From NCBI GenBank assembly GCA_966210885.1, contig CBIHLQ010000004.1, positions 13,620 through 77,619 on the forward strand: 64,000 bases of DNA, given 5' to 3'. A program made the translations under genes and the position numbers. Origin of the DNA: an uncultured Pseudomonas sp. GTDB taxonomy: Bacteria; Pseudomonadota; Gammaproteobacteria; Pseudomonadales; Pseudomonadaceae. The notes under the pieces are model-generated. The model saw only the letters and a program-made list of their open reading frames with translations. It was not told where the DNA came from and did no database searches. This document shows, piece by piece, positions 1 through 55,285 of the stretch (position 1 is the stretch's first letter; every line of letters begins with the position of its first letter).

Positions 1-14
1 TGGCGGAATCTCAC

Positions 15-1253: not shown

Positions 1254-1263
1254 TAAGACGCCT

Positions 1264-1313
1264 TGGTGCGCACGGCGCACCCTACCCGACCGTAGGGTGC
1301 GCTATGCGCACCA
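1264..1313. repeat. REP-type inverted repeat pair between mexE and mexF
   Basis: TGGTGCGCACGGCGCACCCTAC ... GTAGGGTGCGCTATGCGCACCA; GTAG-headed palindromes typical of Pseudomonas REPs. Confidence 0.8.
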
Positions 1314-1331
1314 GCGCTCAAGGATTCTCAA

Positions 1332-4300
1332 ATGAACTTCTCCCAATTCTTTATTCAGCGGCCGATTTTCGCCGCGGTGCTGTCGCTGATCATCCTGATC
1401 GGCGGCGCCATCTCGCTGTTCCAGTTACCGATCAGCGAATACCCGGAAGTGGTGCCGCCGACCGTGGTGGTGCGCGCCAACTTCCCCGGCGCCAACCCCA
1501 AGGTGATCGGCGAAACCGTTGCCTCGCCGCTGGAACAGGCGATCACCGGCGTCGAAGGCATGTTGTATATGTCCTCGCAAGGCACGGCCGACGGCAAGAT
1601 GACCCTGACCCTGACCTTCGCCCTGGGCACCGACCTGGACAAAGCCCAGGTGCAGGTGCAGAACCGCGTGACCCGCACCATGCCGACCCTGCCCACCGAG
1701 GTGCAGCGCCTCGGCGTGACCGTCGACAAGGCTTCGCCGGACCTGACCATGGTCGTGCACCTGACCTCGCCCGACGACCGCTACGACATGCTTTACCTGT
1801 CCAACTACGCCGCGCTCAACGTCAAGGACGAGCTGGCACGGCTGGAGGGCGTCGGCGATGTGCAGTTGTTCGGCCTCGGCAACTATTCGCTGCGCGTCTG
1901 GCTCGACCCGAACAAGGTGGCCTCGCGCAATCTGACCGCTGCGGACGTGGTCAACGCCATCCGCGAGCAGAATCGTCAGGTCGCCGCCGGCTCGCTCGGC
2001 GCGCCGCCTTCGGCCGGCGACAACAGCTTCCAGCTGTCGATCAACACCCAGGGCCGTCTGGTCAGCGAGGAAGAGTTCGAGAACATCATCGTCCGTGCCG
2101 GTGAGAATGGCGAAATCACCCGTCTGAAAGACATCGCGCGGATCGAGCTGGGCTCCAGCCAATACGCCCTGCGCTCGTTGCTCAACAACAAGCCGGCGGT
2201 AGCCATCCCGGTGTTCCAGCGTCCCGGCTCCAACGCCATCGCCATTTCCGACGCGGTGCGCGCACGCATGGCCGAGCTGAAGCAGAGTTTCCCCGAGGGC
2301 GTCGATTACGAGATCGTCTACGACCCGACCATCTTCGTCCGCGGTTCGATCGAGGCGGTGGTGCATACGCTGCTCGAAGCCATCATTCTGGTGGTGCTGG
2401 TGGTCGTGCTGTTCCTGCAAACCTGGCGCGCTTCGATCATTCCGCTGGCCGCGGTGCCGGTGTCGTTGATCGGCACCTTCGCGGTGATGCACGCCTTCGG
2501 CTTCTCGCTAAACGCGCTGTCGCTGTTCGGCCTGGTGCTGGCGATCGGCATCGTGGTGGACGACGCCATCGTCGTGGTGGAGAACGTCGAACGTAATATC
2601 GGCCTGGGCAAAACCCCGGTGGAAGCCACCAAGCAGGCGATGAAGGAAGTCACCGGCCCGATAGTCGCGACCGCCCTGGTGCTGTGTGCGGTGTTCGTGC
2701 CGACCGCGTTCATCTCTGGCCTGAGCGGACAGTTCTATCAACAGTTCGCGCTGACCATCGCGATTTCCACGGTGATCTCCGCGTTCAACTCGCTGACCCT
2801 GTCCCCGGCCCTGGCCGCGGTGTTGTTGCGCAGTCACGATGCGCCCAAGGACGCCTTCTCCAAACTGCTCGACAGGCTGTTCGGCGGCTGGCTGTTCGCC
2901 CCGTTCAACCGTCTGTTCGAGCGCGCCAGTCACGGCTATGTCGGCACCGTGAAGCGCGTGCTACGTGGCAGCTCGGTGGCCCTGCTGGTGTATGCCGGGC
3001 TGATGGGCCTGACCTATCTGGGTTTTGCGACTACGCCAACAGGGTTTGTACCCGGGCAGGATAAACAGTACCTGGTGGCCTTCGCCCAGTTGCCGGACGC
3101 CGCGACCCTCGATCGCACCGAGGCGGTGATGAAAGAAATGTCGGACATCGCCGGCAAGCACCCCGGTGTGGAAAACACCATCGCCTTCCCCGGTCTGTCG
3201 ATCAACGGCTTCACCAACAGCCCGAACAGCGGCATCGTCTTCGTCGCCCTCAAAGACTTCGATCAGCGTAAGGACGAAAGCATGTCCGCCGGGGCCATTG
3301 CCGCTGAGCTCAACGGCCAGTTCGGCTCTATTCAGGAAGCCTATCTGGCGATCTTCCCGCCACCACCGGTTCAGGGCCTGGGCACCATCGGCGGCTTCCG
3401 CCTGCAAGTGCAGGACCGTGGCAACCTCGGCTACGACGAGCTGTACCTGCAGACCCAAAACGTCATCGCCAAGGCGCGCCAGCTGCCGGAGCTGGACCCG
3501 ATGTCGGTGTTTACCAGCTATCAAGTGAATGTGCCGCAGATCGATGCTGCCATCGACCGCGAGAAGGCCAAGACCCACGGCGTGGCGATCAGCGACATCT
3601 TCGACACCATGCAGATCTACCTGGGCTCGCTGTACGCCAACGACTTCAACCGTTTTGGCCGCACCTACCAGGTCAATGTGCAGGCCGAGCAACAGTTCCG
3701 CCTGGAGCCGCAACAGATCGGCCAGCTCAAGGTGCGCAACAACCGTGGCGAAATGATCCCGCTGTCGACCTTCGTCAAGGTCAGCGACAGCGCCGGCCCG
3801 GATCGGGTGATGCATTACAACGGCTTCCTCACCGCCGAGATCAACGGCGCGGCAGCCCCTGGCTACAGCTCCGGTCAGGCCGAAGCGGCGATTGCCAAAC
3901 TGCTCAAAGAGGAGCTGCCCAACGGCATGAGCTTCGAGTGGACCGACCTGACCTACCAGCAGATCCTTGCCGGTAACAGCGCGATCTTCGTCTTCCCGCT
4001 CTGTGTGCTGCTGGCCTTCCTGGTGCTGGCCGCCCAGTACGAAAGCTGGAGCCTGCCGCTGGCGGTGATCCTGATCGTGCCGATGACCCTGCTGTCGGCC
4101 ATCACCGGGGTGATCCTGGCCGGTGGCGACAACAACATCTTCACCCAGATCGGCTTGATCGTACTGGTGGGGCTGGCGTGCAAGAACGCCATTCTGATCG
4201 TCGAGTTCGCCAAGGAGAAACAGGAAGAAGGCATGGACCGCGTCGCCGCGGTGCTGGAAGCCTGCCGCCTGCGTCTGCGGCCGATCCTGATGACCAGCTT

Positions 4301-4511
4301 CGCCTTCATCATGGGTGTGGTGCCGCTGGTGTTGTCCTCCGGCGCCGGCGCGGAAATGCGCCACGCCATGGGGGTCGCGGTGTTCAGCGGCATGCTCGGG
4401 GTGACCTTCTTCGGTCTGCTGCTGACCCCAGTGTTCTATGTACTGATCCGCGCTTTTGTGGAGAAACACGCTGCGAAAAAAGCCGCGCGTTTGCAGGAGG
4501 TGCAGGCATGA
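1332..4511 (+). CDS. mexF: RND efflux transporter (MexF-like), 1059 aa
   Basis: MNFSQFFIQRPIFA start, GIVVDDAIVVVENVER and CKNAILIVEFA proton-relay motifs, RLRPILMTS. Confidence 0.95.
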   Translation: MNFSQFFIQRPIFAAVLSLIILIGGAISLFQLPISEYPEVVPPTVVVRANFPGANPKVIGETVASPLEQAITGVEGMLYMSSQGTADGKMTLTLTFALGTDLDKAQVQVQNRVTRTMPTLPTEVQRLGVTVDKASPDLTMVVHLTSPDDRYDMLYLSNYAALNVKDELARLEGVGDVQLFGLGNYSLRVWLDPNKVASRNLTAADVVNAIREQNRQVAAGSLGAPPSAGDNSFQLSINTQGRLVSEEEFENIIVRAGENGEITRLKDIARIELGSSQYALRSLLNNKPAVAIPVFQRPGSNAIAISDAVRARMAELKQSFPEGVDYEIVYDPTIFVRGSIEAVVHTLLEAIILVVLVVVLFLQTWRASIIPLAAVPVSLIGTFAVMHAFGFSLNALSLFGLVLAIGIVVDDAIVVVENVERNIGLGKTPVEATKQAMKEVTGPIVATALVLCAVFVPTAFISGLSGQFYQQFALTIAISTVISAFNSLTLSPALAAVLLRSHDAPKDAFSKLLDRLFGGWLFAPFNRLFERASHGYVGTVKRVLRGSSVALLVYAGLMGLTYLGFATTPTGFVPGQDKQYLVAFAQLPDAATLDRTEAVMKEMSDIAGKHPGVENTIAFPGLSINGFTNSPNSGIVFVALKDFDQRKDESMSAGAIAAELNGQFGSIQEAYLAIFPPPPVQGLGTIGGFRLQVQDRGNLGYDELYLQTQNVIAKARQLPELDPMSVFTSYQVNVPQIDAAIDREKAKTHGVAISDIFDTMQIYLGSLYANDFNRFGRTYQVNVQAEQQFRLEPQQIGQLKVRNNRGEMIPLSTFVKVSDSAGPDRVMHYNGFLTAEINGAAAPGYSSGQAEAAIAKLLKEELPNGMSFEWTDLTYQQILAGNSAIFVFPLCVLLAFLVLAAQYESWSLPLAVILIVPMTLLSAITGVILAGGDNNIFTQIGLIVLVGLACKNAILIVEFAKEKQEEGMDRVAAVLEACRLRLRPILMTSFAFIMGVVPLVLSSGAGAEMRHAMGVAVFSGMLGVTFFGLLLTPVFYVLIRAFVEKHAAKKAARLQEVQA

Positions 4512-5896
4512 AAGCATTGGCTCCCGCACTCCTGACCCTTGCGCTGACCGCTTGCGCCGTTGGCCCCGACTATCAAATGCCGGCAACCGCGCCGGCGCAG
4601 TTGAGCAGCGCCGAAACCGACAGCTACGACCGCTCGCGTTTCGAGGCGCTCTGGTGGCAGCAGTTCGACGACCCGACCCTGAACCGCTTGGTCCAGCAGT
4701 CGCTCGACGGCAACCGCCAACTGCGCGAGGCCTTCGCCCGTCTGCGCGCCGCCCGGGCTATTCGCGACGACGTCGCCAATGATCGCCTGCCGACCGTCAC
4801 CAGCCGCGCCAGCGGCGAGTTCGGCAAGGCCCAGCAGCCACCCACCAGCGAGCAGCGCATCCGTCAGGAACGCTATGACCTGGGCTTGGACATGGCCTGG
4901 GAGCTGGACCTGTTCGGCCGCATCCAGCGCCAACTGGAGGCCAGCGACGCGCAGATCGAGGTCGCCGAAGCCGACTACTACCAACTGCAAGTCAGTCTGA
5001 TCGCCGAGCTGGTGGATGCCTACGGCAACCTGCGCGGCGCGCAATTGCGCGAGCGCATCGCCCTGCAGAACCTGGAAAACCAGCAGGAGTCGCGGGCCAT
5101 CACCGAGCAATTGCGCGAAGCAGGCGTCGGCAGCGAACTGGATGTGCTGCGCAGCGACGCCCGCCTGGCCGCCACCGAAGCCAGCCTGCCGCAATTGCAA
5201 GCGCAGCAGCAACGGGCCAAACACCGTATCGCCACCCTGCTCGGCCAGCGCCCGGACCAGCTCGACGTGGATTTGTCCGCCGAGCCATTGCCGGCCATCG
5301 CCAAGGCCCTGCCGATCGGCGACCCGGCCGAACTGCTGCGGCGCAGGCCGGACGTGCGCGCCGCCGAGCGCCAGTTGGCGGCGGCAACGGCGAATATCGG
5401 CGTGGCCACCGCGGATCTGTTCCCACGGGTCAGCCTCAGCGGTTTTCTCGGCTTCGCCGCCGGCCGCGGTTCGCAGCTCGGTTCCTCGGCAGCGCGCGCT
5501 TGGAGCCTGGGCCCGAGCATCACCTGGGCGGCGTTCGACCTGGGCAGCGTGCGCGCGCGTTTACGCGGCGCCGAAGCCGAGGCCGAAGGCGCATTGGCCA
5601 ACTATGAACAGGAGGTCCTGCTGGCCCTGGAAGAATCGGCCAACGCCTTCAGCGACTACGCGAAGAACCAGCAACGCCTGCTCGCCCTGCTGCGCCAATC
5701 CGAAGCCAGCCGCGCCGCCGCCGAGCAAGCCGCGGTGCGCTACCGCGAAGGCGAAGTGGACTTCCTGGTACTGCTCGACGCCGAGCGCGAACGCCTCGCC
5801 GCCGAAGACGCCCAGGCCGTCGCCGAGGTCGAGCTGTACCGCGGCATAGTCGCCATCTACAAGGCGCTCGGCGGCGGTTGGCAGCCCAGCGCCTAG
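4508..5896 (+). CDS. oprN: Outer membrane efflux factor (OprN-like)
   Basis: ATG at 4508 overlaps the mexF stop (ATGA); lipobox LTAC; WELDLFG and RRPDVRAAE OMF motifs. The ORF-track start at 4178 is an over-extension. Confidence 0.92.
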   Translation: MKALAPALLTLALTACAVGPDYQMPATAPAQLSSAETDSYDRSRFEALWWQQFDDPTLNRLVQQSLDGNRQLREAFARLRAARAIRDDVANDRLPTVTSRASGEFGKAQQPPTSEQRIRQERYDLGLDMAWELDLFGRIQRQLEASDAQIEVAEADYYQLQVSLIAELVDAYGNLRGAQLRERIALQNLENQQESRAITEQLREAGVGSELDVLRSDARLAATEASLPQLQAQQQRAKHRIATLLGQRPDQLDVDLSAEPLPAIAKALPIGDPAELLRRRPDVRAAERQLAAATANIGVATADLFPRVSLSGFLGFAAGRGSQLGSSAARAWSLGPSITWAAFDLGSVRARLRGAEAEAEGALANYEQEVLLALEESANAFSDYAKNQQRLLALLRQSEASRAAAEQAAVRYREGEVDFLVLLDAERERLAAEDAQAVAEVELYRGIVAIYKALGGGWQPSA

Positions 5897-5930
5897 CTCT
5901 CTCCTTGGTTGGCCCAGCCAGCCTTTTCCC

Positions 5931-5963
5931 AGCCACGGTAACGCTCGTTACCGTGGTTTTTTT
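5931..5963 (+). terminator. Rho-independent terminator of mexEF-oprN
   Basis: CCACGGTAAC-GCTC-GTTACCGTGG perfect 10 bp stem followed by 7 T. Confidence 0.9.
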
Positions 5964-6120
5964 CATGTCCCCATTACGTGTTGCATGGGCGACGGCTGGG
6001 TTAGCCGAAGATGTACCCCAGCGACCTCAAGCATCTCAGCCATGTTGAATTCCAATGCTGTTCGTGAGTGATGCTCAACCACTTCCCTCCGGATTCCATA
6101 CGGATCTACCAAAGCTATTC

Positions 6121-6197
6121 AGGGTGGATCGGGGCGCGTAGATGATACTTTTTTCATCCACCATCGCGGCCGGTGGATGAGCGTCATCCGCCCTACG
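6121..6197. repeat. Degenerate REP/REPIN doublet
   Basis: AGGGTGGAT...TTTTTCATCCACC...GGTGGATGAGCGTCATCCGCCCTAC; nested inverted repeats ending in CTAC, left GTAG head missing. Confidence 0.65.
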
Positions 6198-6279
6198 AGG
6201 TCAGGCCTTGCGGATATACATAGGATCTACAACGGCGGCCATACCACGTTCGCGTAGACATTGGTCGGAACGTATTCAG

Positions 6280-8946
6280 TCACTGCGCGATGTGCGAATC
6301 AGGTGCTATAACTTTTGCCTTATTCGGTACCACCAGCAGATCCATACCTGAGATAAAGGTGCCGTCGCCTGACACCGTTATCATCCGAGTCCCCGTATCG
6401 GTCAGCCCAAGGCGCTGTAGTTGCTCGGGTGAGACCCGTAGTAGGTAATCGCCGGCGACTACTCCGGGGATGATATAGAAGCCATCCCAGCTACTGGTTA
6501 TCTGGCCAACGATCTCCATCCGCTCGTCCAACAGCTCCAGTTGCATATCGCCGATGCCCCGCTTGTTCTCATGCTCGAACAGATAGACAGTGCCATCGAT
6601 TTCAGTGGTCATGCGCACTGGAAAATCCAGTTCGGCCACTCGACCAGGACGAGGCACCAGGCTATGGCCGGCGACCTCGGGTGCCCATTGCGGATCGCTC
6701 AGGGTGCTGGTATCCACGCCTATATCGACACGCTGCTTGATCGGCAGTTGCCTCATATGGGCGATGCCCTGCGCGTCTGTGCGGACTTGCCGCCTGCCAC
6801 CGTTAATGGTGAACCCTGCCCCCTCCAGCGGATCCTCGCCGGGATCCATCACCCCGTTATTGTTGTTGTCCAGAAACATGCGTACGGAGGCGGCACCGGT
6901 ATTTGCCATAGGCTGTGCATCGAGCAGCCAGTCGGCCTTGCGTGGATCTCGGCCCAGGGAGAGAAAGAACTGCATACCGACTGCGATATCGCCGCTGTCC
7001 AGGTAGCTGGCGTTGACCCCCAGGCCGAATCGCCCCAGGCTTTTGGTGAAGCCGGCGGTATAACGTGTTTCGGGCGACTGAAAGCTGTGCGCAATACCCA
7101 GGGTCAGCCGATAACCCTCCGCCAGGTACTTGTCCGCCGTTAGGGCCACGCTGGCGAGTTCCGCCTGGGGGGCCAGGTTGTAGCTCAGTTGGCCACGAAA
7201 ACTCATATCGCGTATGCGTTGGCTGAGCTGCAAATTGCCGAAAGCGAACTCGTCGCCATTGATGGAATGCCAGTTGAGGGTATTGCTCAGCGCCGTGCGA
7301 TAGGCATACCCGGAGATGCGGGTGCTGACATCGTTATCGATTCGGCCGGATTCGTGCTCATCGCGAGTCGCCTGAAAGGTGATCGGTATCCGTGAGCGAG
7401 CGCCCACCGGAATGGAGCCGCTCAACCGTAGCTCATCACGGCTCTTGATGGGATCGTTGTAGAAGAGGAAGTAGTCGCTTTTGAAGTCGTAGAGAAACAA
7501 ACGACTGGCATCTATCGAAACGCCGCCGAGACGAGTCTGCAAGCCGAGTTCCGTTAGCGAGCCACCCTCTTGATCTCTGATCAGATCGGTGTTCAGACTC
7601 AAAGATTGCCAGAAAGTCCTCAGCCCGATATTGGAATACTGATGTTCGACACCATCCACGGGCGCTCTGATCAAGCCACCTGTGGCAGAGAGCGTTCGGG
7701 ACAATCCCATATCGAACTGGGCGATTGAGCGCGTCAGACCATCCTCGTCGCGATGCTCGATCAGGTTGTACTGGAGTTCGCCCGGCAACACCATGGACTC
7801 GGCGAGGGAGTAGCTATATTGCTCGACCTGGGTTTGCCCCAGGGGACCATGGAAAACCAATTGAAAGTCGTTGCGGCCATAGCTCAGGGGCTGGTCCTCA
7901 AAGCGATAGCGGCCCTCGGCATTGGGTTGCTGGAAGCCCACCAGTGCGCCGTTGTAGAAGAGTTCCACATCCCACCCCGGCGGCAGGTCGCCCTCAAAAG
8001 TCTGGCGGTCGAACTGCGTGGGCCGGGTCAGTGGCCGATTGCTCAGGGTGATCCCCTCGCCGGCTCTGCCCTGGGTAATGTTATCCACGCTCGGAGTGGA
8101 AAGACTGCCGAATTGGAAGGATCGCGCCTGCAGGGGGCCCAGCAGGCCGCCATCCGGATCGTGCCGCCCAAAGGTCGCGCGTATTTCTTGTGACTCACCT
8201 GCTGTATCGCCATTGAGATAAAGGGTGGACTCCATGCCCAGCAGATCGCCCGTCAAGAGTGCGGTGTAACGGCTATCGGTATGGGTGCCGGTATCGTCGC
8301 GGCGGGCTTCCGTCGCGAATGTCTGATCGATGAAGGGGGTGCTCAACATCTGATAAGGCATGTCGTGACGTGGATAGCCGGGATCCTCGTAGGCGCCATG
8401 CCTCCCGGCCCGCTCACCGACGCGTGCGCGCCGCAAGCGGGCCTGTAACGGTAAAGGTTCGAGCGGATAGACCTGCAATGTCAGCCTCGGTCGGTCGACC
8501 TCCAGCTCTATCGGTAGCCAGCGCTCGATCAACGATACCGCGACGTACAGATCGTCTGGCTCCGCCTGCACCAGCGCGGGATCGAAGGCTTCCGTTTCAC
8601 CGGCCAGGGTAATGCGAGCCTCTTTCAGGTTCAGGCTGAATCCGCGGTCCTCGCTCAGGACGAAACCGCTGGCGGTACCCTGCCCGGGCTGGGTCTGCAC
8701 CGCGATCGTGAGCAGGCGCGCCAGCTCGCCCAGAGGCAACAAGGTGTGTTCACCCATGTCAAAGGCAGGAATGGCGTCGGACAGCACCGATTGATCCAGA
8801 CGCACCTCGAGCAGCAGGCTCGGCTCAGAAGACTCAAGCCCAGGTTCCTGGGCGGCCAGGATACCGGCATGGCCCAGCAGCCCCGGCAATAACGCCAGCC
8901 GGACGAACCTACCCACCGCCCTCTGACAGGCTGCTAAAAATTTCAT
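6280..8946 (-). CDS. Atypical fimbrial usher-like outer membrane protein with C-terminal SdrD-B/carboxypeptidase-regulatory-like domains, 888 aa
   Basis: Signal peptide; usher plug-like segment EGDLPPGWDVELFYNGALVG...YRFEDQPLSYGRNDFQLVFHGPLGQ; amphipathic beta-strand core; C-terminal FLDNNNNGVMDPGE motif; lies downstream of a chaperone and pilins. Confidence 0.8.
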   Translation of the reverse strand: MKFLAACQRAVGRFVRLALLPGLLGHAGILAAQEPGLESSEPSLLLEVRLDQSVLSDAIPAFDMGEHTLLPLGELARLLTIAVQTQPGQGTASGFVLSEDRGFSLNLKEARITLAGETEAFDPALVQAEPDDLYVAVSLIERWLPIELEVDRPRLTLQVYPLEPLPLQARLRRARVGERAGRHGAYEDPGYPRHDMPYQMLSTPFIDQTFATEARRDDTGTHTDSRYTALLTGDLLGMESTLYLNGDTAGESQEIRATFGRHDPDGGLLGPLQARSFQFGSLSTPSVDNITQGRAGEGITLSNRPLTRPTQFDRQTFEGDLPPGWDVELFYNGALVGFQQPNAEGRYRFEDQPLSYGRNDFQLVFHGPLGQTQVEQYSYSLAESMVLPGELQYNLIEHRDEDGLTRSIAQFDMGLSRTLSATGGLIRAPVDGVEHQYSNIGLRTFWQSLSLNTDLIRDQEGGSLTELGLQTRLGGVSIDASRLFLYDFKSDYFLFYNDPIKSRDELRLSGSIPVGARSRIPITFQATRDEHESGRIDNDVSTRISGYAYRTALSNTLNWHSINGDEFAFGNLQLSQRIRDMSFRGQLSYNLAPQAELASVALTADKYLAEGYRLTLGIAHSFQSPETRYTAGFTKSLGRFGLGVNASYLDSGDIAVGMQFFLSLGRDPRKADWLLDAQPMANTGAASVRMFLDNNNNGVMDPGEDPLEGAGFTINGGRRQVRTDAQGIAHMRQLPIKQRVDIGVDTSTLSDPQWAPEVAGHSLVPRPGRVAELDFPVRMTTEIDGTVYLFEHENKRGIGDMQLELLDERMEIVGQITSSWDGFYIIPGVVAGDYLLRVSPEQLQRLGLTDTGTRMITVSGDGTFISGMDLLVVPNKAKVIAPDSHIAQ

Positions 8947-8960
8947 GGCAGACGTGCTGA

Positions 8961-9878
8961 TCAGGGCAGCTGAAGAACCGCCTCGGCCAGCAGGTCGCCG
9001 CCGTCCTCCGCCTGTTCCCGGTAAGTGATCCGCAGCACCCCATTGGCCAATTGCAGGCCGCCTGGAGGATCGAGCCTCAGCTTGGCGCGCCGCAGCGGAT
9101 TAGGGGTATAGACGGCCACGCCATTGGCACGACCGATGATCTGTTCGGCGCCCCCCTTGGGGGTGAAACTGGCAGCCAGATCGCCGTAAACGGACTGATT
9201 GCCGCTGCGCTCCATCTGCAAGGCCAGCAGTGATTGCCCGCGAGGCAGGTGCTGAAGCTCGAGCTGGGTCAAGGCCACGTCGGCATCGGTATTGCCATGG
9301 CGAACAATGACTGGGATGGAGATGCCGAGCAACGTATTCAGGACGATCCCGATGCCTTTGTCATTGCGGGTTTCGATGCTGGATCTGCCTTTGGCTTCCG
9401 GCAACTGGGTAAACAGCAAGTGCGAACGGTATTCTCCTGCCGCAAGATCGCCGGGTTTGCGCACCATGATGCGGACAGTCTGCCCCGCCCCCGGAGCAAG
9501 CGTCACCTGTCTCGGGGAATAGCGCAGCATGCTGTCGGAAAACTGCTCGCCTGGCTGTGGGGTCTCGATGTCTGAAAAGGCTCCGGTTTCGTCCATGCGC
9601 CGATTAACCAGGCTGATTCGATAAGTCGCGCTTTGGCTACCATTGTTGATCAATTCAAGCTGGGCTGCCCGCTGGTTGCCCTTGAAGACTATGCGGGTTG
9701 GATAAAGCATCAGCTCCGCCAGCGCTTCGCTCATACAGAACAGCATGAGCACACCGCATACAACTGCAGTTAAACGCCGGGGAAACCGGCTCGTGGCCAA
9801 AGTCCAGGAACAGGATGATTGAATCATGGCTCCGGCTGTTCCGGTGCGGATAGCTCTAGTCGAAGTGGTAACGCTCAT
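8961..9878 (-). CDS. Periplasmic pilus chaperone (PapD-N/EcpB-like)
   Basis: LMLYPTRIVF, YSPRQVTLAPGAGQTVRI and GEYRSHL motifs; ATG at 9878 has an AAGGA RBS 8 nt upstream (alternative start 9827). Confidence 0.85.
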   Translation of the reverse strand: MSVTTSTRAIRTGTAGAMIQSSCSWTLATSRFPRRLTAVVCGVLMLFCMSEALAELMLYPTRIVFKGNQRAAQLELINNGSQSATYRISLVNRRMDETGAFSDIETPQPGEQFSDSMLRYSPRQVTLAPGAGQTVRIMVRKPGDLAAGEYRSHLLFTQLPEAKGRSSIETRNDKGIGIVLNTLLGISIPVIVRHGNTDADVALTQLELQHLPRGQSLLALQMERSGNQSVYGDLAASFTPKGGAEQIIGRANGVAVYTPNPLRRAKLRLDPPGGLQLANGVLRITYREQAEDGGDLLAEAVLQLP

Positions 9879-9994
9879 TTTCCAATTCCTTCTAATTCCA
9901 CTTGTTCCCTGCGATCTGCGCAGGAAATGTGGATCCTTATTGAGCGGCATCTTTTTGCCGTTTCGACGAGGGTCGCCTGTGAATCTCGCTTGGC

Positions 9995-10459
9995 TCAGTT
10001 GTAGTTGACGATAACCATGAAACTGCCCGAATACTGGCCGGCAGTCTGACCGCTGCCCACCTGGAGAGCGGCACCCACCGACAAGGTCTGGGAGCCGCCC
10101 GCACTCAATTGGCCGCCTGCTTCCGACGGCGTGCTGGTGAAATCGTTGATAATCATGTCGGCGCCCGGCCCAGTCAGCTTTACAAAGTCGTTGGCTGGCA
10201 ACTCTATGGTATAGGTGGCATTGGGGTCGCCGGTGACCGTGAACTTGGCGGCCTGGCCTGCACTCGAAGGGATCAGCATCACGTCCCCGCTGGCACTGCG
10301 CATATCGTTGGTATCGACCGCCACGGTACCACCAACGCCAGCTACGAAGCTGCCGAAGGCCAAGGACTGGGTATTCTGGATGGCGATTTCCGCGCGGACA
10401 CTGGGAGCCATGAGGACGGCCAGTAGACTAACCGCGGCGATCGGCAGGTAATGCTTCAT
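9995..10459 (-). CDS. DUF4402-like pilin subunit 3 (candidate tip/minor subunit)
   Basis: Signal peptide MKHYL...VRA, LAFGSF, VGAALQVGSGQTAGQYSGSFMVIVNYN; start has a GAGAGAG RBS. Confidence 0.85.
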   Translation of the reverse strand: MKHYLPIAAVSLLAVLMAPSVRAEIAIQNTQSLAFGSFVAGVGGTVAVDTNDMRSASGDVMLIPSSAGQAAKFTVTGDPNATYTIELPANDFVKLTGPGADMIINDFTSTPSEAGGQLSAGGSQTLSVGAALQVGSGQTAGQYSGSFMVIVNYN

Positions 10460-10506
10460 TGGCTCTCTCTCGGGTGGGTGATTCCAGAGTACTGCAGGGC
10501 CCGATA

Positions 10507-10935
10507 TCAATTGTAGGTTATGGTGATACTGATATCGCTTATGCCGGAGGGACTGTCGCCAGTAGCTTTCAGAATGATACCGCTTACCGGATCACCATCA
10601 AGCAGCCCTTCCTGATCCACCAGCCTGAGGCAATCGCCCCGACCAGCACAACCTGTATCTACTTTCTCCTGCAGTTGGGCAATGATTAAGCGAAAACGAT
10701 CTTCATCCGTTCCGGCCATGAATTCGCTGGGAAGACGAATTATCAGATCCCCCGTGAGGCCGCTGACAAACACGGCCGTACCTTGCGGCATAAGCGTTTC
10801 GTTGATTTTGACCGGAGCGACTATCCTGGCGCTAGCCATCGCCGCTGCCCGGTTTGCACAGGTACTGCCGCTGACCCCGGCCATGCTCGAGGCCAGCGCA
10901 AATACAAGGGCGAAGCTGCCGAAACCCAACCTCAT
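10507..10935 (-). CDS. Short divergent DUF4402-like pilin subunit 2
   Basis: Signal peptide, ASARIVAP segment homologous to TSATVVVP of pilin 1, C-terminal ISITITYN, two Cys. Confidence 0.65.
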   Translation of the reverse strand: MRLGFGSFALVFALASSMAGVSGSTCANRAAAMASARIVAPVKINETLMPQGTAVFVSGLTGDLIIRLPSEFMAGTDEDRFRLIIAQLQEKVDTGCAGRGDCLRLVDQEGLLDGDPVSGIILKATGDSPSGISDISITITYN

Positions 10936-10991
10936 AGTTCCGCCCCCTTTCCGCTGGGCCAGCGGCCTCCTTGCCCCGCACCGGAGAACTG

Positions 10992-11531
10992 TTAGTTATA
11001 GTTCACTTCTGCCGTGATGGTGCCAGAGTAAACTCCTGTTGTTTGAGCATTCCCCACAGTCAGAGTCCCACCGACATAGAGTGTCTGTGTACCACCGGTG
11101 AGCGTGCCGCTCGCCGGACTATTCTCTGTAGCGCCATCGAGGTCGTGGACGGTCGCAAGGGCCATAGTCGTGACGGTATCCGTATGAGTCAGATTGTCGT
11201 CCGTGACGCTGATGCTGAAGCTGGCGTCGGCTTGGCCGGTAACCGTGAACTGCGCAGCGGCAGCAGTGCCCCCCGTCAGTACAACATCGCCGGTCGGGCT
11301 AGCCGCACCGCCAGTAGTCAATACGACGGTGCCGCCCGTGCCCGCAGCGAATTCGCCGAAAGAAAGATCCTGGGCCTGTGCAATCGCGATGGGCACAACG
11401 ACCGTAGCGCTGGTAGTGGCGGTGTCGCTTACTGCAGCAGCAAAACTGTTGGAAGCGCCAAAAGCCCCCAACGCGGCGACCGAAGCCACCGCGGCAAGAC
11501 GGAAGTTCTTGCTAGAAAGAATAGATTTCAT
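10992..11531 (-). CDS. DUF4402-like major pilin candidate, 179 aa
   Basis: Signal peptide, Ala/Thr/Gly-rich, DLSFG motif, YVGGTLTVGNAQTTGVYSGTITAEVNYN end; first gene of the operon. Confidence 0.88.
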   Translation of the reverse strand: MKSILSSKNFRLAAVASVAALGAFGASNSFAAAVSDTATTSATVVVPIAIAQAQDLSFGEFAAGTGGTVVLTTGGAASPTGDVVLTGGTAAAAQFTVTGQADASFSISVTDDNLTHTDTVTTMALATVHDLDGATENSPASGTLTGGTQTLYVGGTLTVGNAQTTGVYSGTITAEVNYN

Positions 11532-11590
11532 AGGTAAATCCCCTTGTTAAGCCATGTCGCAGACGTGCTTGCCGTCAACAGCAGCTTGAA

Positions 11591-11653
11591 CTGAAACACC
11601 AATCACAGGGGATCCGAAAACGGGCCAATGAGGGGGCCGAAAACAGACCAATG
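11591..11653. repeat. Three imperfect direct repeats in the pilin 5' leader
   Basis: GAAACACCAATC / GAAAACGGGCCAATG / GAAAACAGACCAATG; the last two also share a GGGG(A/G)..CC prefix, about 23 nt period. Confidence 0.6.
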
Positions 11654-11697
11654 TAGCCTGAGCACCGAGAAAGCGGCTCGAAAAAACTACATTGAAT

Positions 11698-11786
11698 GTC
11701 GACGGTCCCGCTGTCATGAGGCTTTAGGGCCCTTTAGACCGGTGACTTTGCGTCTCCGCCTTTCGACGGGTTTGCCTTTATCGCAC
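11698..11786 (-). ncRNA. c-di-GMP-I (GEMM-I) riboswitch aptamer upstream of the pilin operon
   Basis: Minus strand reads GUGCGAUAAAGGCAAACCCGUCGAAAGGCGGAGACGCAAAGUCACCGGUCUAAAGGGCCCUAAAGCCUCAUGACAGCGGGACCGUCGAC. It has GGCAAAC, a P2 stem with GAAA tetraloop, GACGCAAAG, a UCUAA..AUGA tetraloop receptor and P1 GU(g)CGAU/GUCGAC. Confidence 0.9.
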
Positions 11787-11839
11787 CTTAAGGATAGTCA
11801 ACTCGGATGAATGCGCAATTTGGGCGTCGCTTGCAAAGC

Positions 11840-12137
11840 GTAGTCTAATTTCGCTAGACGCCTCTGCCGCTGGAAAAGCCACCGGAAGAGATGTCATGTA
11901 TGAGCCGTAAATGCAGAGTGTCCAACGCCAACTTCAAGCCGCAAGTCGTGCAGATGGTGAAGGAGAAAAGCCTGATTGTGCCTCGGAGTTGATAGGTGAG
12001 ACGGCGGTTCGCCGTTGGTTTCAGCAGTACAACGCCAAGCTACCCGGATAGTCCGGAATCAGTAAGCCGCGAACCTTCAAGCAACAACGAATCCGCTAGT
12101 TCGAAGCTGTCAGCTCAAGCAGTAAAACGACCTGTTA
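11840..12137 (+). pseudogene. Decayed IS3-family element end with transposase OrfA remnant
   Basis: From ATG 11900, across stops and frameshifts: MSRKCRVSNANFKPQVVQMVKEKSL..GETAVRRWFQQYNA..SGISKPRTFKQQRIR*FEA..QLKQ*NDLL, which matches the IS3 OrfA HTH plus leucine-zipper pattern; IR-like GTAGTCTAATTTCGCTAGACGCC at about 11840. Confidence 0.75.
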
Positions 12138-12462
12138 GGCTATTGGCGTCACTATCAGGGCAATTTGCTCGGCTGATCCGATTGCTCGTCGAGATCGCCG
12201 CCGAAGGAGTCATCGGCGCCCTCCGCCCCGTAGCGGCATAGGCCGGGTCGACATCATAGGCGCCACCCGGCACCTGCGCGCCCTTCTCAAACGCCTCGCG
12301 ATTGCGCTCGATCGCCTGTCTCACCGCCTGAGGGGCGTCCTTCGCCACCTTGCCTTTGGTTGCGTCGCCGTTCGTCTTGTCCTTCGCGGAATCGCCTTGC
12401 GGCGGATTGCCGGGAATCTGGCATTGCTCGCTGTTTTTCGGGGTATCGGGTTGCCGACTCAT
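12115..12462 (-). CDS. Hypothetical hydrophilic low-complexity protein, 115 aa
   Basis: GGAG RBS before ATG 12462; no recognisable domain; 3' end overlaps the IS remnant. Confidence 0.4.
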   Translation of the reverse strand: MSRQPDTPKNSEQCQIPGNPPQGDSAKDKTNGDATKGKVAKDAPQAVRQAIERNREAFEKGAQVPGGAYDVDPAYAATGRRAPMTPSAAISTSNRISRANCPDSDANSLTGRFTA

Positions 12463-12679
12463 GATTCGAACTCCAATCGATGTGCGCACCCGGTAGAGAA
12501 AAACGCAGGTAAAAGTGCGCATCCCGGGATCGGCGGTTATGCCTTTCAGCGTCGCCCGAACGGCTGCCGTAGATCGACTGGAACGCCCGTGCTTGAGCCG
12601 CTTCACCGCTTCCGTGAACTATCTCGAATGTCGGTGCTCACATGGGTTATGTGCACTCAGCAATGGTCTACGCCGCCCT

Positions 12680-13105
12680 ATGGACAGCCAAGAGAGCAGC
12701 CGGATAGCCGCTCCGCTGGCGCGCTGTCTCGGAGAGCATGCGGATGCCATGCAGATCGCCGATGCGATTGTTGTCGTGTGGAGTGAAATTGATAGCGCCC
12801 TGGCGCCGATTATCGGGCACGGGGGGGTGATTGCGCTGTGCAAGCGCAGCCTTTATCTCGCCGCCCAGCGACACGCCTGCCTGACTGACGCTTATGCAAG
12901 CATCCAGTCAGGGGGCGAGTTCACCGATTTTAAGCCAGTTATCGCGCAACAGACCGGCATCACTGTCTCCGTCGGCGATGAGGTTTTCCAACAGTTCAAT
13001 GGGTTGCTTGTGTCGTTGATCGGCAGCTCTCTCACCGAGCGATTGCTGCGCTCCGTGTGGGAAAACTCGTTGGCCGCGCCGCCCGCGCAGGAGCATTTGC
13101 CATGA
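12680..13105 (+). CDS. Small alpha-helical protein coupled to the KaiC-like ATPase, 141 aa
   Basis: MDSQESSRIAAPL start; stop overlaps the ATPase start (ATGA at 13102-13105). Confidence 0.7.
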   Translation: MDSQESSRIAAPLARCLGEHADAMQIADAIVVVWSEIDSALAPIIGHGGVIALCKRSLYLAAQRHACLTDAYASIQSGGEFTDFKPVIAQQTGITVSVGDEVFQQFNGLLVSLIGSSLTERLLRSVWENSLAAPPAQEHLP

Positions 13106-14562
13106 AAAAAGTAGCCATCAACTGTTTGTCTACTGGCATTGCGGGCCTGGATCGAGTCCTGGCCGGTGGGTTGCCGGAGCTTTCCTTCAATGTGATCGCC
13201 GGCGCCCCCGGCTGCGGTAAGACCACGCTGTCGCATCAACTCATGTTCGAAATGGTCAAGCACAATGCCCCAGCGCTGTATTTCACGGGATTGGGCGAGC
13301 CTCCGTTGAAAATGCTGCGTCACCAGCAGCAGTTCGATTTCTTCGACGACGAGAAGATCGGCCAGTCGATCCACTTTATCAACCTGACGGAGGATATCTT
13401 CGGCGGCGACCTCAAGTTGATGCTGCAGCGGATCGTCGACGAGGTACTAAGCCATCAACCCAAGCTGGTATTCGTCGACTCCTTCCGCGCTGCGGTGCAC
13501 TCCAACGAGGTGGAGCAACAGCCGAACAGCGATCTGCAGCAATTTATGCAGCAGCTCGGGCTATTGTTGACCAGTTGGCAGATCACCTCGTTCCTGATCG
13601 GCGAATACTTTTCCGAGGTCGGCAACAACCCAGTGTTCACGGTGGCCGATGGCTTGATCTGGCTACATAAGGACGTGCATCGCAACTCCTTGGTGCGCAA
13701 GTTGGAAGTCATGAAAATGCGCGGTCAGCCAGTCCTGCCGGGGCTACATACCTACCGACTCAGCTTGCATAAAGGCATCGAAGTATTCGCACCCTCCGAT
13801 AGCCTGGCGCTGCCTGAGTGCATCCGTCCCTCGGAGACTTCCCGCCTGGGGATGGGGGTGGAGCATCTGGACGAGATGCTCGGGGGCGGTTTGCCGAGTG
13901 GTTATGCGCTGTTGGTGGTAGGCCCTTCGGGGTCTGGCAAGTCGACTCTGGCCATGGCGTTCTTGGCCGAAGGCGTACGCAACGGCGAGACCGCGGTGAT
14001 TGCCAATTTCGATAAAAATCCCTATCTGTCGTGCAACCCAGCACTCGTCAATTTGTTGAACAGTGGACAGATCGGCGTGCTGTACAGCCTCGCCCCCGAT
14101 CTGTCGATCGATGAGATTGCGCTCAAGTTGGTCGACGAAATCCGCCGACTCAAGGCGACCCGCGTGGTGATCGATTCGCTATCGGGCCTCGAACTCTCCC
14201 TGGCCCCGACCTCCCGCGCGGACTTCCGCGAATCGCTGGCTCGCCTGACCAGGACCCTGTCCAACACCGGTGTCAGCGTGCTGTTGATCTCCGAACTCGA
14301 GGATAGCTATACCGAGTTGCGCTTAAGCCCTCACGACACCGCGTTCCTCGCCGACGCAATCATCATGCAGCGCTATATCGAAGTCGACAGCAGGCTGCTG
14401 CGGGTGATGGCGGTGGTCAAGGTTCGGGGCAGCAAGCACTCCAATCAACTGCGTCAATTCACTATCGACGACGAGGGTATTCACCTGGGCGAACCCTTGA
14501 TAAATCAGGAAGGGTTGCTGGGTGGCCAGCCAACGGCAAATACCGGTAACGATTCGGCCTGA
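13102..14562 (+). CDS. KaiC-like double-domain RecA-superfamily ATPase, 486 aa
   Basis: Two Walker A motifs (GAPGCGKT, GPSGSGKS), Walker B motifs (VFVDS, VVIDS), KMRG and KVRG arginine fingers; GGAG RBS. Confidence 0.92.
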   Translation: MKKVAINCLSTGIAGLDRVLAGGLPELSFNVIAGAPGCGKTTLSHQLMFEMVKHNAPALYFTGLGEPPLKMLRHQQQFDFFDDEKIGQSIHFINLTEDIFGGDLKLMLQRIVDEVLSHQPKLVFVDSFRAAVHSNEVEQQPNSDLQQFMQQLGLLLTSWQITSFLIGEYFSEVGNNPVFTVADGLIWLHKDVHRNSLVRKLEVMKMRGQPVLPGLHTYRLSLHKGIEVFAPSDSLALPECIRPSETSRLGMGVEHLDEMLGGGLPSGYALLVVGPSGSGKSTLAMAFLAEGVRNGETAVIANFDKNPYLSCNPALVNLLNSGQIGVLYSLAPDLSIDEIALKLVDEIRRLKATRVVIDSLSGLELSLAPTSRADFRESLARLTRTLSNTGVSVLLISELEDSYTELRLSPHDTAFLADAIIMQRYIEVDSRLLRVMAVVKVRGSKHSNQLRQFTIDDEGIHLGEPLINQEGLLGGQPTANTGNDSA

Positions 14563-14591
14563 CGGGCGAGCGCCCTGGGGAGGCTTGTACT

Positions 14592-16181
14592 TTGAACAAA
14601 AAACGGGGCCGCGGCCCGGATACGGCCAAAGCTCGACCTGAATCGACGCCCGATCAACCGATCGAGTCGGTGTCGCAAAAGAAGTTGGACGAACTGAAGA
14701 AGCGTCTGGACGATAGCCATCCGTCGCCACTGGTGGAAGCCAACGAGCAGTTGGTGTTCGCCATGTTGCGCACCCAGATCAAGGCCGAGCAAGCCGAGCG
14801 CAAACTCCAGGAGGCTTTGCGCCTGGTCGAGCTGGACGCATTGACGGGCCTGCCGAACCGCGTGCTGTTTTTCGACCGTTTCACCCGTGCGATCGCCAAT
14901 GCCAAGCGGCATAACCAGCGTTTGGCGCTGTTGTTCCTCGACCTCAACAACTTCAAGCAAATCAACGACACCCTCGGCCATAGCGTGGGCGACGAGGTGC
15001 TCAAGCATGCGGCAAGGTGCTTCGTCTCCTCGGTGCGCGAGGCCGATACCGTCAGTCGTCTGGGCGGCGATGAGTTTTTGATCCTGCTCACGGAAGTTAC
15101 CCAGCCCGCCGATGCGACCTTGATCGCCAGAAAAGTCACGGCGGCGCTCGGCACGCCGAACCGTATCGGCGAGCACCTGTTGCGCCTGACCACCAGCATC
15201 GGCATCAGCATCTATCCCGACGATGGCGATACGCCCGACGAACTCGTCGAGCGCGCCGATGCCGCCATGTACCGGGCCAAGCGGCACGGGCTGGGCGGCT
15301 TCGTGTTTCACGGCGAGGCCAACGACAGCGAGCCGCTCGACCCGCCCGTCAGCTCGCTCAAGCGTCTGGTTACCCACTATGAGTTGTTACAGGCCGAGCA
15401 TGATCGGCACAGCTGCGACTTGTTGGAAGCCAACGAACAGTTGGTCCTGGCCGCCCTGACCGCACAGGCCCTGCAAGCCGAGGCGGAACAGGCGGAGCGC
15501 CGGCAAAAGGACGCCCTGACTCTGCTCACGCATGAAGTGCGCACGGCCTTGACGCCGATCCGCATGGTCGCGGAATTGTTAAGTCGCCCTAGCCAGCACG
15601 TGCCACTGCGCTTGCAACAGGTTTTCGAACGCAAGGTAAGCCATCTGTACCGCGTGCTGGACGACCTGCTGCATATCTCGCGCGCTAGCGTCGCCAAGTT
15701 GAAGCTCGAGCGGCAAACGGTCGATTTGAACCATATCGTCGAATCGGTGGTGCAAACCTGGCGGCCGGAGATGGACAGTCGAACACAGCGTTTTGAACTG
15801 CGGATGCCGCAACAGGCACTGTTGTTGGAAGGCGACCCGATGAGGCTGGAACAGATTTTCGACAACCTGCTCGGCAACGCCTGCCAATACACCCCGGCGG
15901 GCGGACAGATCGCGCTGACCGCGAAGTGCGAAGGCGATACCGTCGTCATCACGATCAACGACAGTGGCGTCGGCATCGATACCGAACTGTTGCCGAACAT
16001 CTTCGAGCCGTTCGTGCAGACGCCCGGCGCCATCGACTTCGACAGCGGCGGTTTGGGCATCGGGCTCACGGTGGTGCGCGAACTGGTCCTGGCCCACGGC
16101 GGCGAGGTCGCCGCCAGCAGTGCTGGCCCCGGTCTCGGTAGCCAGTTCGTGGTCAAACTGCCTCTGCTCGGGCAATCTTAA
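14592..16181 (+). CDS. GGDEF diguanylate cyclase - HisKA - HATPase_c fusion protein, 529 aa
   Basis: DALTGLPNR, DLNNFKQINDTLGHSVGD, READ I-site plus RLGGDEF; THEVRT H-box, NLLGNA N-box, DSGVGI, IFEPF, GLGIGL. Start codon (TTG) uncertain. Confidence 0.88.
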   Translation: MNKKRGRGPDTAKARPESTPDQPIESVSQKKLDELKKRLDDSHPSPLVEANEQLVFAMLRTQIKAEQAERKLQEALRLVELDALTGLPNRVLFFDRFTRAIANAKRHNQRLALLFLDLNNFKQINDTLGHSVGDEVLKHAARCFVSSVREADTVSRLGGDEFLILLTEVTQPADATLIARKVTAALGTPNRIGEHLLRLTTSIGISIYPDDGDTPDELVERADAAMYRAKRHGLGGFVFHGEANDSEPLDPPVSSLKRLVTHYELLQAEHDRHSCDLLEANEQLVLAALTAQALQAEAEQAERRQKDALTLLTHEVRTALTPIRMVAELLSRPSQHVPLRLQQVFERKVSHLYRVLDDLLHISRASVAKLKLERQTVDLNHIVESVVQTWRPEMDSRTQRFELRMPQQALLLEGDPMRLEQIFDNLLGNACQYTPAGGQIALTAKCEGDTVVITINDSGVGIDTELLPNIFEPFVQTPGAIDFDSGGLGIGLTVVRELVLAHGGEVAASSAGPGLGSQFVVKLPLLGQS

Positions 16182-16233: not shown

Positions 16234-16755
16234 ATGCCAGCCCTACTCCGCGCGCTTGAAGGCGACATTACCCGGCTGCGGGTGCACGCTATCGTCAACG
16301 CGGCGAACAGCTCGCTGCTCGGCGGCGGTGGGGTCGATGGCGCGATCCACCGCGCCGCCGGCCCGCAATTGCTCGAAGAATGCCGGCGCCTTGGCGGTTG
16401 CAAAACCGGCGAGGCCAAGCTGACCCGCGGCTATCGGCTGCCTGCCGACTACGTCATCCATACGGTCGGGCCGGTTTGGCGGGGCGGCGATCACGGCGAA
16501 GCCTCCTTGCTGGCGTCCTGTTACCGGCGCTCGCTGGAGCTTGCCGCCGAGCACGGCATCCGCAGTCTGGCCTTCCCCTGTATAGCTACAGGTGTTTATG
16601 GCTACCCCAACGAACTGGCGGCGCAGGTCGCGGTAACCACGGTACAAGCCGCGCTGCAACAGCTTGTCAGCCTCGAGGAGCTGATCTTCTGCTGTTTTTC
16701 GGCCCATGATCTGCGGCTCTATCAGAGGCTTCTCCGAGAGATGCCGAGCCATTAA
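16234..16755 (+). CDS. ymdB: Macro domain O-acetyl-ADP-ribose deacetylase (YmdB-like)
   Basis: [51 protein letters not shown]. Confidence 0.93.
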
Positions 16756-55155: not shown

Positions 55156-55216
55156 GCGCACCGCAGCGGCCAATACACTTGCCAAGTACGCCCGCAGCAC
55201 CTATTGCTTAATAAGC

Positions 55217-55285
55217 GTGACGCCGGGCCCCTCTGGCGGTGAGCCCTCACCGTGATGTCGGAGTCACTGAGTTGATTCTCAACTT
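55217..55285 (+). ncRNA. Candidate structured leader RNA (possible terC RNA motif)
   Basis: GTGAC...GTCAC outer stem enclosing a CGGTGA-GCCC-TCACCG hairpin, then AGTTGA-TTC-TCAACT, just upstream of the TerC RBS. Confidence 0.5.

Follow-up and report, generated by a model that had tools for sequence, protein, structure and literature searches.

A c-di-GMP riboswitch-pilus operon next to a KaiC-like ATPase/GGDEF-kinase triad in an uncultured Pseudomonas sp.: probably two cassettes brought together by insertion

When a gene for a predicted cyclic diguanosine monophosphate (c-di-GMP) synthase lies next to a c-di-GMP riboswitch, do the two form a circuit, or are they merely neighbours? This question is raised by a contig of an uncultured Pseudomonas sp. 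(GCA_966210885.1, contig CBIHLQ010000004.1), of which we analysed positions 13,620-77,619 of the forward strand, a stretch of 64,000 nucleotides (nt) referred to below as the window. Leftward, a c-di-GMP-I riboswitch precedes a pilus operon; rightward runs a set of three genes, the triad, for a small protein of 141 amino acids (aa), a KaiC-like ATPase and a fusion of a GGDEF domain with a histidine kinase. An earlier note on this DNA had proposed a self-contained signalling circuit running from the ATPase through the cyclase and the riboswitch to the pilus, adding as a hedge that the two halves could be independent acquisitions. Rfam, Pfam and motif checks found all of the elements that it listed in place, including the riboswitch before the pilus operon, the intact GGDEF motif and I-site, and an insertion sequence (IS) scar between the halves. 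The circuit itself fared differently: we consider it likely that one insertion event, confined to one species of Pseudomonas, placed two independently conserved cassettes next to each other. The hedge agrees with this reading, which rests on relatives that hold the triad without the pilus operon and on a locus, L011, that holds the pilus operon without the triad.

Distribution of the two halves and structure of the junction

On the pilus side, one genome per species was scanned, which yielded 404 relatives of the usher-like protein encoded by the operon; 80 of these, with 10-kb flanks, and 5 loci from assemblies gave a set of 85 pilus loci. Searches of this set with tblastn found neither the small protein nor the KaiC-like gene within 10 kb in any of the 85 loci, which span many genera, and no full-length orthologue of the GGDEF-kinase was present in any of them. 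On the triad side, a metagenome scan with an alignment of the small protein yielded 185 relatives, of which 80 loci (596 kb) were analysed. Pilus genes were found in 0 of these 80 loci, as was a credible riboswitch, and both were also absent from five other triad lineages. The only other contig with the arrangement of the window was L093, which is 96.8% identical at the nt level over 17.6 kb and which, given this identity, we judge to represent the same species and the same insertion event. The earlier note had named a lack of co-occurrence elsewhere as an argument against its circuit, and in this synteny comparison the halves were never together beyond that one conspecific contig.

Closer relatives, compared with the window by blastn, separate the halves in both directions. 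In L091, from a sister lineage, the flanks are 89-92% and the triad 88% identical to the window at the nt level; in L002 and L094, the corresponding values are 84-88% and 75%. The inserted segment (Table 1) is absent from L002, L091/L092 and L094/L095, all of which retain the triad. L002 and L091 align to window positions 1-5963 and again from ~12155/12565 onwards, with no alignment between, and share both flanks with it: a LysR gene, a resistance-nodulation-division efflux pump, its OEP gene, the triad, DsbB, a glycosyltransferase (not in L091), DctP and a Wsp-like cluster. The contig of L094 starts just 5′ of the triad, so that only its right-hand neighbourhood is visible. Between the OEP gene and the triad lies a gap (window 5964-12679, L091 7324-9965, L002 7290-8000) that is occupied in L091/L092 by a gene with 7TMR-DISMED2, 7TMR-DISM and GGDEF domains and in L002 by a gene for a 175-aa membrane protein; because it holds different genes in the window, L091 and L002, this gap is a variable hotspot. 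Conversely, L011, from another uncultured Pseudomonas metagenome-assembled genome (MAG), matches the window only over the cassette core (Table 1), which takes in the usher gene at one end and extends ~130 nt past the riboswitch at the other. Its surroundings there are unrelated and include an S-type pyocin, a DDE transposase and a REC-PAS-GGDEF-EAL gene; the triad is missing.

The junction points to insertion, on account of an IS3 remnant and of the lower content of guanine and cytosine (GC), overall and at third codon positions (GC3), in the inserted segment. A 51-aa peptide spliced from the frameshifted remnant matched annotated IS3 transposases at 44-50% identity, E 4e-7 and 100% coverage (tblastn against plasmids), the similarity being to the N-terminal helix-turn-helix region of OrfA; Pfam scans of the remnant peptides gave no match, and no related IS copy was found elsewhere in the genome, which comprises 5.66 Mb. 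Next to it lies a resident 115-aa open reading frame (ORF) whose homologue adjoins the triad in relatives without the pilus operon, with window 12155-12343 being 82% identical at the nt level to L091 7610-7799 and 77% to L094 305-505. The halves had been described as divergent operons sharing the interval of 11.5-12.7 kb; they are divergent, but since the IS3 remnant and the resident ORF occupy this interval, it does not serve them jointly as a bidirectional promoter region. Likewise, the impression that the pilus half is richer in AT held when computed, at a modest size: the inserted segment has a GC content of 0.581 versus 0.619 for the genome (a value this low occurs in 11% of 6-kb windows, whose standard deviation is 0.032), and GC3 is 0.58-0.72 in the pilus genes versus 0.78-0.86 in flanking genes. 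The composition of the triad is intermediate (GC 0.600, GC3 0.71-0.79).

Table 1. Features of the locus, in window coordinates.
Feature	Position	Strand	Basis or remark
Inserted segment with usher-like operon, riboswitch and IS3 remnant	5964..12154	none	absent from relatives that keep the triad
Core of riboswitch-pilus cassette	6296..11917	-	span 91.9% nt identical to L011
Usher-like outer-membrane protein, 888 aa	6280..8946	-	fold-level similarity to FimD/PapC
Periplasmic chaperone-like protein	8961..9950	-	PapD_N E 1.4e-5, 25.5 bits (cut-off 23)
DUF4402 pilin-like subunit	9995..10510	-	PF14352 E 6.8e-29
Secreted protein, 142 aa, possible minor subunit	10507..10935	-	no Pfam or NCBIfam match
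DUF4402 pilin-like subunit, first gene of operon	10992..11531	-	PF14352 E 3.7e-26
Leader (expression platform)	11532..11697	-	166 nt; hairpin, then U-rich tract
c-di-GMP-I aptamer	11698..11786	-	RF01051, 73.1 bits (gathering score 35)
IS3-family OrfA remnant, frameshifted and truncated	11896..12051	+	spliced 51-aa peptide compared with IS3 transposases
Resident ORF, 115 aa	12115..12462	-	homologous to 81-aa gene 5′ of triad in relatives
All-alpha protein, 141 aa, first gene of triad	12680..13105	+	conserved; start from L002 homology and frame check
KaiC-like double RecA-domain ATPase, 486 aa	13102..14562	+	PF06745 twice, E 3.7e-63
Cytoplasmic GGDEF-HisKA-HATPase_c fusion, 529 aa	14592..16181	+	Pfam and motifs
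Macro-domain gene, directly 3′ of triad	16234-16755		PF01661 E 1e-49

Further differences were seen around the triad. Its divergence from L002 (window 12565-16173 versus L002 7973-11596) and L094 exceeds that of the flanks there, as the identities above indicate, and the triad would either be evolving faster than its neighbourhood or have been exchanged by recombination. The Macro-domain gene is also present in L093 and missing from L002, L091 and L094, which makes it a second small indel at the locus. Elsewhere in the window, a terC RNA motif (RF03067, 58 bits) lies at 55215-55270.

The riboswitch and its pilus operon

Protein domains were called with Pfam and NCBIfam models and the riboswitch with the Rfam covariance model RF01051. 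The aptamer match spans model positions 1-87 of 87 and is the only c-di-GMP-I match in an Rfam scan of the whole genome. The aptamer sits 166 nt 5′ of the minus-strand operon, and in 22 other pilus loci an aptamer lies directly 5′ of the first pilin; riboswitch and pilus operon are thus a conserved unit, with positive loci in Halomonas, Marinobacter, Pseudomonas, Marinimicrobium, Novilysobacter, Glaciimonas and some Burkholderiales. For six riboswitch-negative pilus loci, an Rfam scan confirmed that no aptamer was present. Beside the cassette in three of these six lies a tRNA or tmRNA gene (L014 14161-14523, Marinobacter sp. ELB17; L031 5516-5709, a Comamonadaceae MAG; L035 6613-6805, a Polaromonas MAG); such genes are typical integration sites of genomic islands.

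Across 16 orthologous leaders, double (compensatory) changes occurred in 12 of 21 predicted pairs of the aptamer helices P1, P2 and P3, and covariation was seen in all of these helices; RNAalifold recovered the aptamer from the same leaders, but not the expression platform. In the leader of the window, the element GGAUCCCC is complementary to the Shine-Dalgarno (SD) sequence AGGGGAUU, and the minimum-free-energy fold pairs the two. An element resembling GGAUCCCC is retained ~75 nt 5′ of the start codon in most orthologous leaders, and some leaders carry matching changes in the anti-SD and SD elements (in L021, GAUCUCC pairs with GGAGAUU). This retained complementarity, together with the matching changes, suggests that the leader acts by translational control through SD sequestration. 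Judging from the expected biology, the operon is probably ON at high c-di-GMP.

Two variations were noted among the leaders. In the first, a ~22-nt unit, CAUUGG(U/C)C(U/C)GUUUUCGG(C/A)(C/U)CCCCU, is repeated in tandem, which gives two anti-SD-like CCCCU elements; the repeat occurs only in the window (11532-11697, minus strand) and in L011 (7245-7410), and not in the leaders of Halomonas or Marinobacter. The leader aptamer of L006 (7195-7283, Halomonas sp. LBP4) scored best not with RF01051 but with c-di-GMP-I-GGC (RF03167, 69 bits), and ligand specificity may differ among orthologous cassettes.

The operon encodes small secreted subunits, a chaperone-like protein retained in 83 pilus loci and a large protein of 888 aa. 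Among the subunits, the DUF4402 protein at 9995..10510 likely starts at 10459, giving 154 aa, as judged from the gene call in L093, and the 142-aa protein has a homologue in just 7 pilus loci. The 888-aa protein had been called an usher, a name that its predicted fold favours and its sequence does not. No Pfam or NCBIfam usher model matched it, and none of its 897 homologues is annotated as an usher; nearly all are called hypothetical or are named for an accessory domain (SPOR, carboxypeptidase-regulatory-like or AMIN). An AlphaFold model built on 12 homologues reached a mean predicted local distance difference test score (pLDDT) of 55, with 65-87 in the barrel part. It contains ~24 long beta strands. 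In a Foldseek search of the PDB, FimD/PapC took the first 17 places (E 1e-17 to 4e-11), with TM-scores of just 0.3-0.47 at that mean pLDDT; other barrels matched only from E ~1e-7. At the level of predicted fold only, an atypical chaperone-usher system is a fair description of the operon. Many of the usher-like homologues bear an extra SPOR, AMIN, LysM or TPR domain. Such domains serve peptidoglycan binding or protein contacts and are unusual in ushers.

Both components have known counterparts. Like other c-di-GMP-I (GEMM-I) riboswitches, the aptamer belongs to RF01051 and precedes, within the 5′ leader, an operon for a surface appendage; Vc1 and Vc2 of Vibrio cholerae are examples, and a c-di-GMP-II riboswitch precedes pilA1 in Clostridioides difficile. 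Unlike in the known cases, the operon here is DUF4402/usher-like and does not encode type IV pili or a chitin-binding protein, and aptamer and operon form one cassette that moves among Halomonas, Marinobacter, Pseudomonas and some Burkholderiales. With the FimC/FimD and PapD/PapC systems, the operon shares a PapD_N-like chaperone, a large predicted beta-barrel outer-membrane protein whose model best matches FimD/PapC and small secreted subunits encoded upstream. It differs from them in that the usher-like protein has no sequence-level match to an usher family and a barrel model of low confidence (pLDDT 55), that the subunits are DUF4402 rather than fimbrial PF00419 proteins, and that the C-terminal domain of the usher-like protein resembles CarboxypepD_reg/SdrD_B. 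Our literature searches found no paper tying a c-di-GMP riboswitch to chaperone-usher pili, and nothing relevant on DUF4402 or on KaiC-like proteins with a diguanylate cyclase.

The KaiC-like ATPase and GGDEF-kinase triad

The genes of the triad are closely spaced and conserved together as a cassette. In the contexts examined, the small protein is always encoded 5′ of the KaiC-like gene, and the fusion is always preceded by both. Among the metagenomic loci with sufficient room, KaiC is adjacent to the small protein in 41 of 43, and GGDEF and kinase follow in 24 of 30. In the window, the start of the KaiC-like gene at 13102, placed by homology to L002 and a frame check, overlaps the stop of the small-protein gene as ATGA. 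All 118 homologues of the 141-aa protein are annotated as hypothetical. Its AlphaFold2 model is an all-helical bundle (pLDDT 76), for which a fold search against the PDB gave no match (best E 1.3); a KaiA-like or KaiB-like fold found no support in that search.

The KaiC-like protein carries the Walker A motifs GAPGCGKT and GPSGSGKS. Compared with solved KaiC structures, it has A/F at the positions of S431/T432, and the EE pair is GE in CI and DK in CII; its score against NCBIfam KaiC equivalogs is 204, below the cut-off of 408. No KaiA or KaiB gene is present in the locus, the genome as a whole not having been searched for KaiB, and a second double-domain KaiC gene lies on contig C14 of the same genome.

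The third protein combines PF00990 (E 1e-49), PF00512 (27.9 bits, threshold 26.9) and PF02518 (E 4.8e-26). Its GGDEF active site RLGGDEF is intact, the I-site READ (RxxD) lies 5 residues upstream, and both fall within READTVSRLGGDEF; by these sequence features, the fusion qualifies as a predicted diguanylate cyclase. The H-box LTHEVRTAL contains the phospho-acceptor His. No REC-domain gene that might encode a cognate response regulator was found in or beside the triad in any triad locus examined. The protein has two copies of a helix motif, L(V/L)EANEQLV...L..Q...AE.AER, at residues ~47-75 before the GGDEF domain and ~277-305 before HisKA, which may be a duplicated signalling helix controlling both outputs.

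More than 120 full-length homologues of the fusion, at least 53% identical, were found in Pseudomonas, Lysobacter, Luteimonas, Pseudoxanthomonas, Rhodocyclales and Caldimonas; a class-level search of 400 genomes with the GGDEF-kinase, in which only 3 candidates were scored per genome, gave no match, and we regard it as uninformative. Three species of the same genus have a kinase-only version, in which the small protein is accompanied by a KaiC-like protein (63-64% identical) and by a kinase of 342 aa; the latter shares 49-51% identity with the kinase half of the fusion. Given this version, the GGDEF domain is an N-terminal addition to a KaiC-associated kinase.

By its described features, the triad matches a published Pseudomonas module, "group II" of Terrettaz et al. 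(bioRxiv 10.1101/2022.01.26.477890), of which it would be a GGDEF-bearing variant. According to that study, group II KaiC proteins lack phosphorylatable residues at S431/T432, have relatives in Xanthomonadales, are associated with a kinase only and usually co-reside with another KaiC homologue. The protein described here is likewise double-domain with A/F at S431/T432, its closest relatives are from Xanthomonadales, a kinase is its sole signalling neighbour, and there is a second KaiC in the genome. The differences are the N-terminal GGDEF domain of the kinase and the conserved, translationally coupled 141-aa helical protein upstream. The study never mentions GGDEF and does not describe the 141-aa protein; it reports KaiB to be absent from 1255 Pseudomonas genomes, and physical KaiC-kinase binding by two-hybrid assay and co-immunoprecipitation for groups I and III, with group II itself left without experimental study (bioRxiv 10.1101/2022.01.26.477890). 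Because synteny is conserved, the genes are translationally coupled and KaiC-kinase binding has been published, it is a reasonable inference that the KaiC-like ATPase and the small protein modulate the sensor-less GGDEF-kinase.

The cyanobacterial KaiABC-SasA/CikA system similarly combines a hexameric ATPase of the KaiC family with a histidine kinase as presumed output. The triad differs from it in having no KaiA or KaiB nearby, in lacking the phosphosites and carrying GE/DK in place of the EE pairs, in a kinase without a KaiB-like or pseudo-receiver domain, and in a small partner whose modelled fold is unlike any solved structure.

Private circuit or chance neighbours

According to the reading that we favour, the riboswitch-pilus cassette would be a horizontally moving unit of the riboswitch and an atypical chaperone-usher operon, which encodes 2-3 DUF4402 subunits, a chaperone of the PapD kind and an usher distantly similar to FimD/PapC. 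It would have inserted at the variable spot between the OEP gene and the triad, leaving the IS3 remnant behind. Its aptamer would read the overall c-di-GMP pool of the host, fed here by 62 GGDEF-domain proteins, and would set pilin translation through SD sequestration in the 166-nt leader. The triad (12680-16181, plus strand) would be resident at its chromosomal site; its small protein and its ATPase without clock phosphosites would most likely bind and modulate the GGDEF-kinase, which would put out c-di-GMP and a phosphoryl signal to a response regulator. The neighbouring cyclase would then supply no more than one share among many of the c-di-GMP that the riboswitch reads.

A dedicated circuit would instead have the KaiC-like ATPase time or gate the adjacent cyclase. 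The riboswitch next to it, on pilin mRNA still being made, would preferentially sense the product of that cyclase, and the locus would act as a self-contained timer of attachment. The cyclase does lie 2.8 kb from the genome's only c-di-GMP-I riboswitch, its GGDEF motif and I-site are intact, and a conspecific genome preserves the arrangement. Against this stand the 61 further GGDEF domains of the genome, the IS3 remnant and resident gene between the two promoters, the sister lineage with the triad and no pilus, L011 with the pilus and no triad, and the failure of the halves to co-occur in any of the 85 pilus or 80 triad loci. At 62 GGDEF domains, or 1.1 per 100 kb, a given point in this genome has one within ±3 kb with a chance of ~6.5%, and a distance of 2.5 kb or less from such a domain is seen in ~10% of the other cassette loci. 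We give this circuit very little credence. A related possibility is that the link is new and confined to one species: after a chance insertion 0.9 kb upstream of the triad, a line from ATPase timer through c-di-GMP to pilus translation would have been kept by selection. This, too, we regard as improbable.

Between these stands a looser coupling, in which the cassette has no specific partner and is preferentially retained beside genes of c-di-GMP turnover, which would provide a replaceable local input. Genes for REC-PAS-GGDEF-EAL proteins adjoin the cassette, within 2.5 kb, in Marinobacter, Pseudomonas, Rhodoferax and Marinimicrobium (L007 4350-7091, L011 12960-15524, L013, L029 and L033), GGDEF-GerE proteins that are 55% identical are encoded upstream of it in L010 and L034, and a 7TMR-DISM GGDEF gene fills the same hotspot in L091. 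The recurrent neighbours are of the REC-PAS-GGDEF-EAL or GGDEF-GerE type and never the KaiC-linked fusion; they may be recurrent partners, or paralogues present at chance frequency. Overall, 8 independent loci of 83 have a GGDEF domain at a distance of 2.5 kb or less. This enrichment does not exceed 1.5-2 fold and lacks significance when set against plausible background densities, the density in the flanks of the 84 other pilus loci being 1.5 per 100 kb; the REC-PAS-GGDEF-EAL proteins are 35-42% identical to one another, as expected of paralogues with a common architecture, and 66 of the 84 loci have no GGDEF domain within 10 kb. We consider a coupling of this kind unlikely.

Some observations weigh against the view that the two cassettes are merely neighbours, or fit it incompletely. 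Gene adjacency is neither proof nor disproof of functional coupling. The pilus-triad arrangement has been retained in two conspecific genomes, and the 8 of 83 loci with a nearby GGDEF/EAL gene compare with ~4-6 expected, which leaves room for a weak tendency of cassettes to lie near c-di-GMP genes. No direct or inverted repeats that would point to a mechanism were found at the borders of the insertion. Modelling of SD accessibility in 21 leaders, with and without an insulated aptamer, gave no consistent shift that would point to ON or OFF.

Were the dedicated circuit real, one cyclase would have a genomically encoded private line to one riboswitch, a rare case that would bear on an old question, namely how dozens of c-di-GMP enzymes in one cell attain specificity; a newly wired link would be a natural example of a mobile riboswitch cassette captured by a particular second-messenger source. 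The comparative evidence against the circuit spares a knock-out campaign on the wrong hypothesis. With the locus read as two independent cassettes, the riboswitch and the DUF4402/usher-like operon would constitute a self-contained, horizontally moving regulatory cassette able to use the c-di-GMP pool of any host. The group II KaiC-like module, in turn, would have a widespread GGDEF-kinase variant and a conserved, previously undescribed 141-aa partner, and this variant would connect KaiC-type ATPases to second-messenger synthesis.

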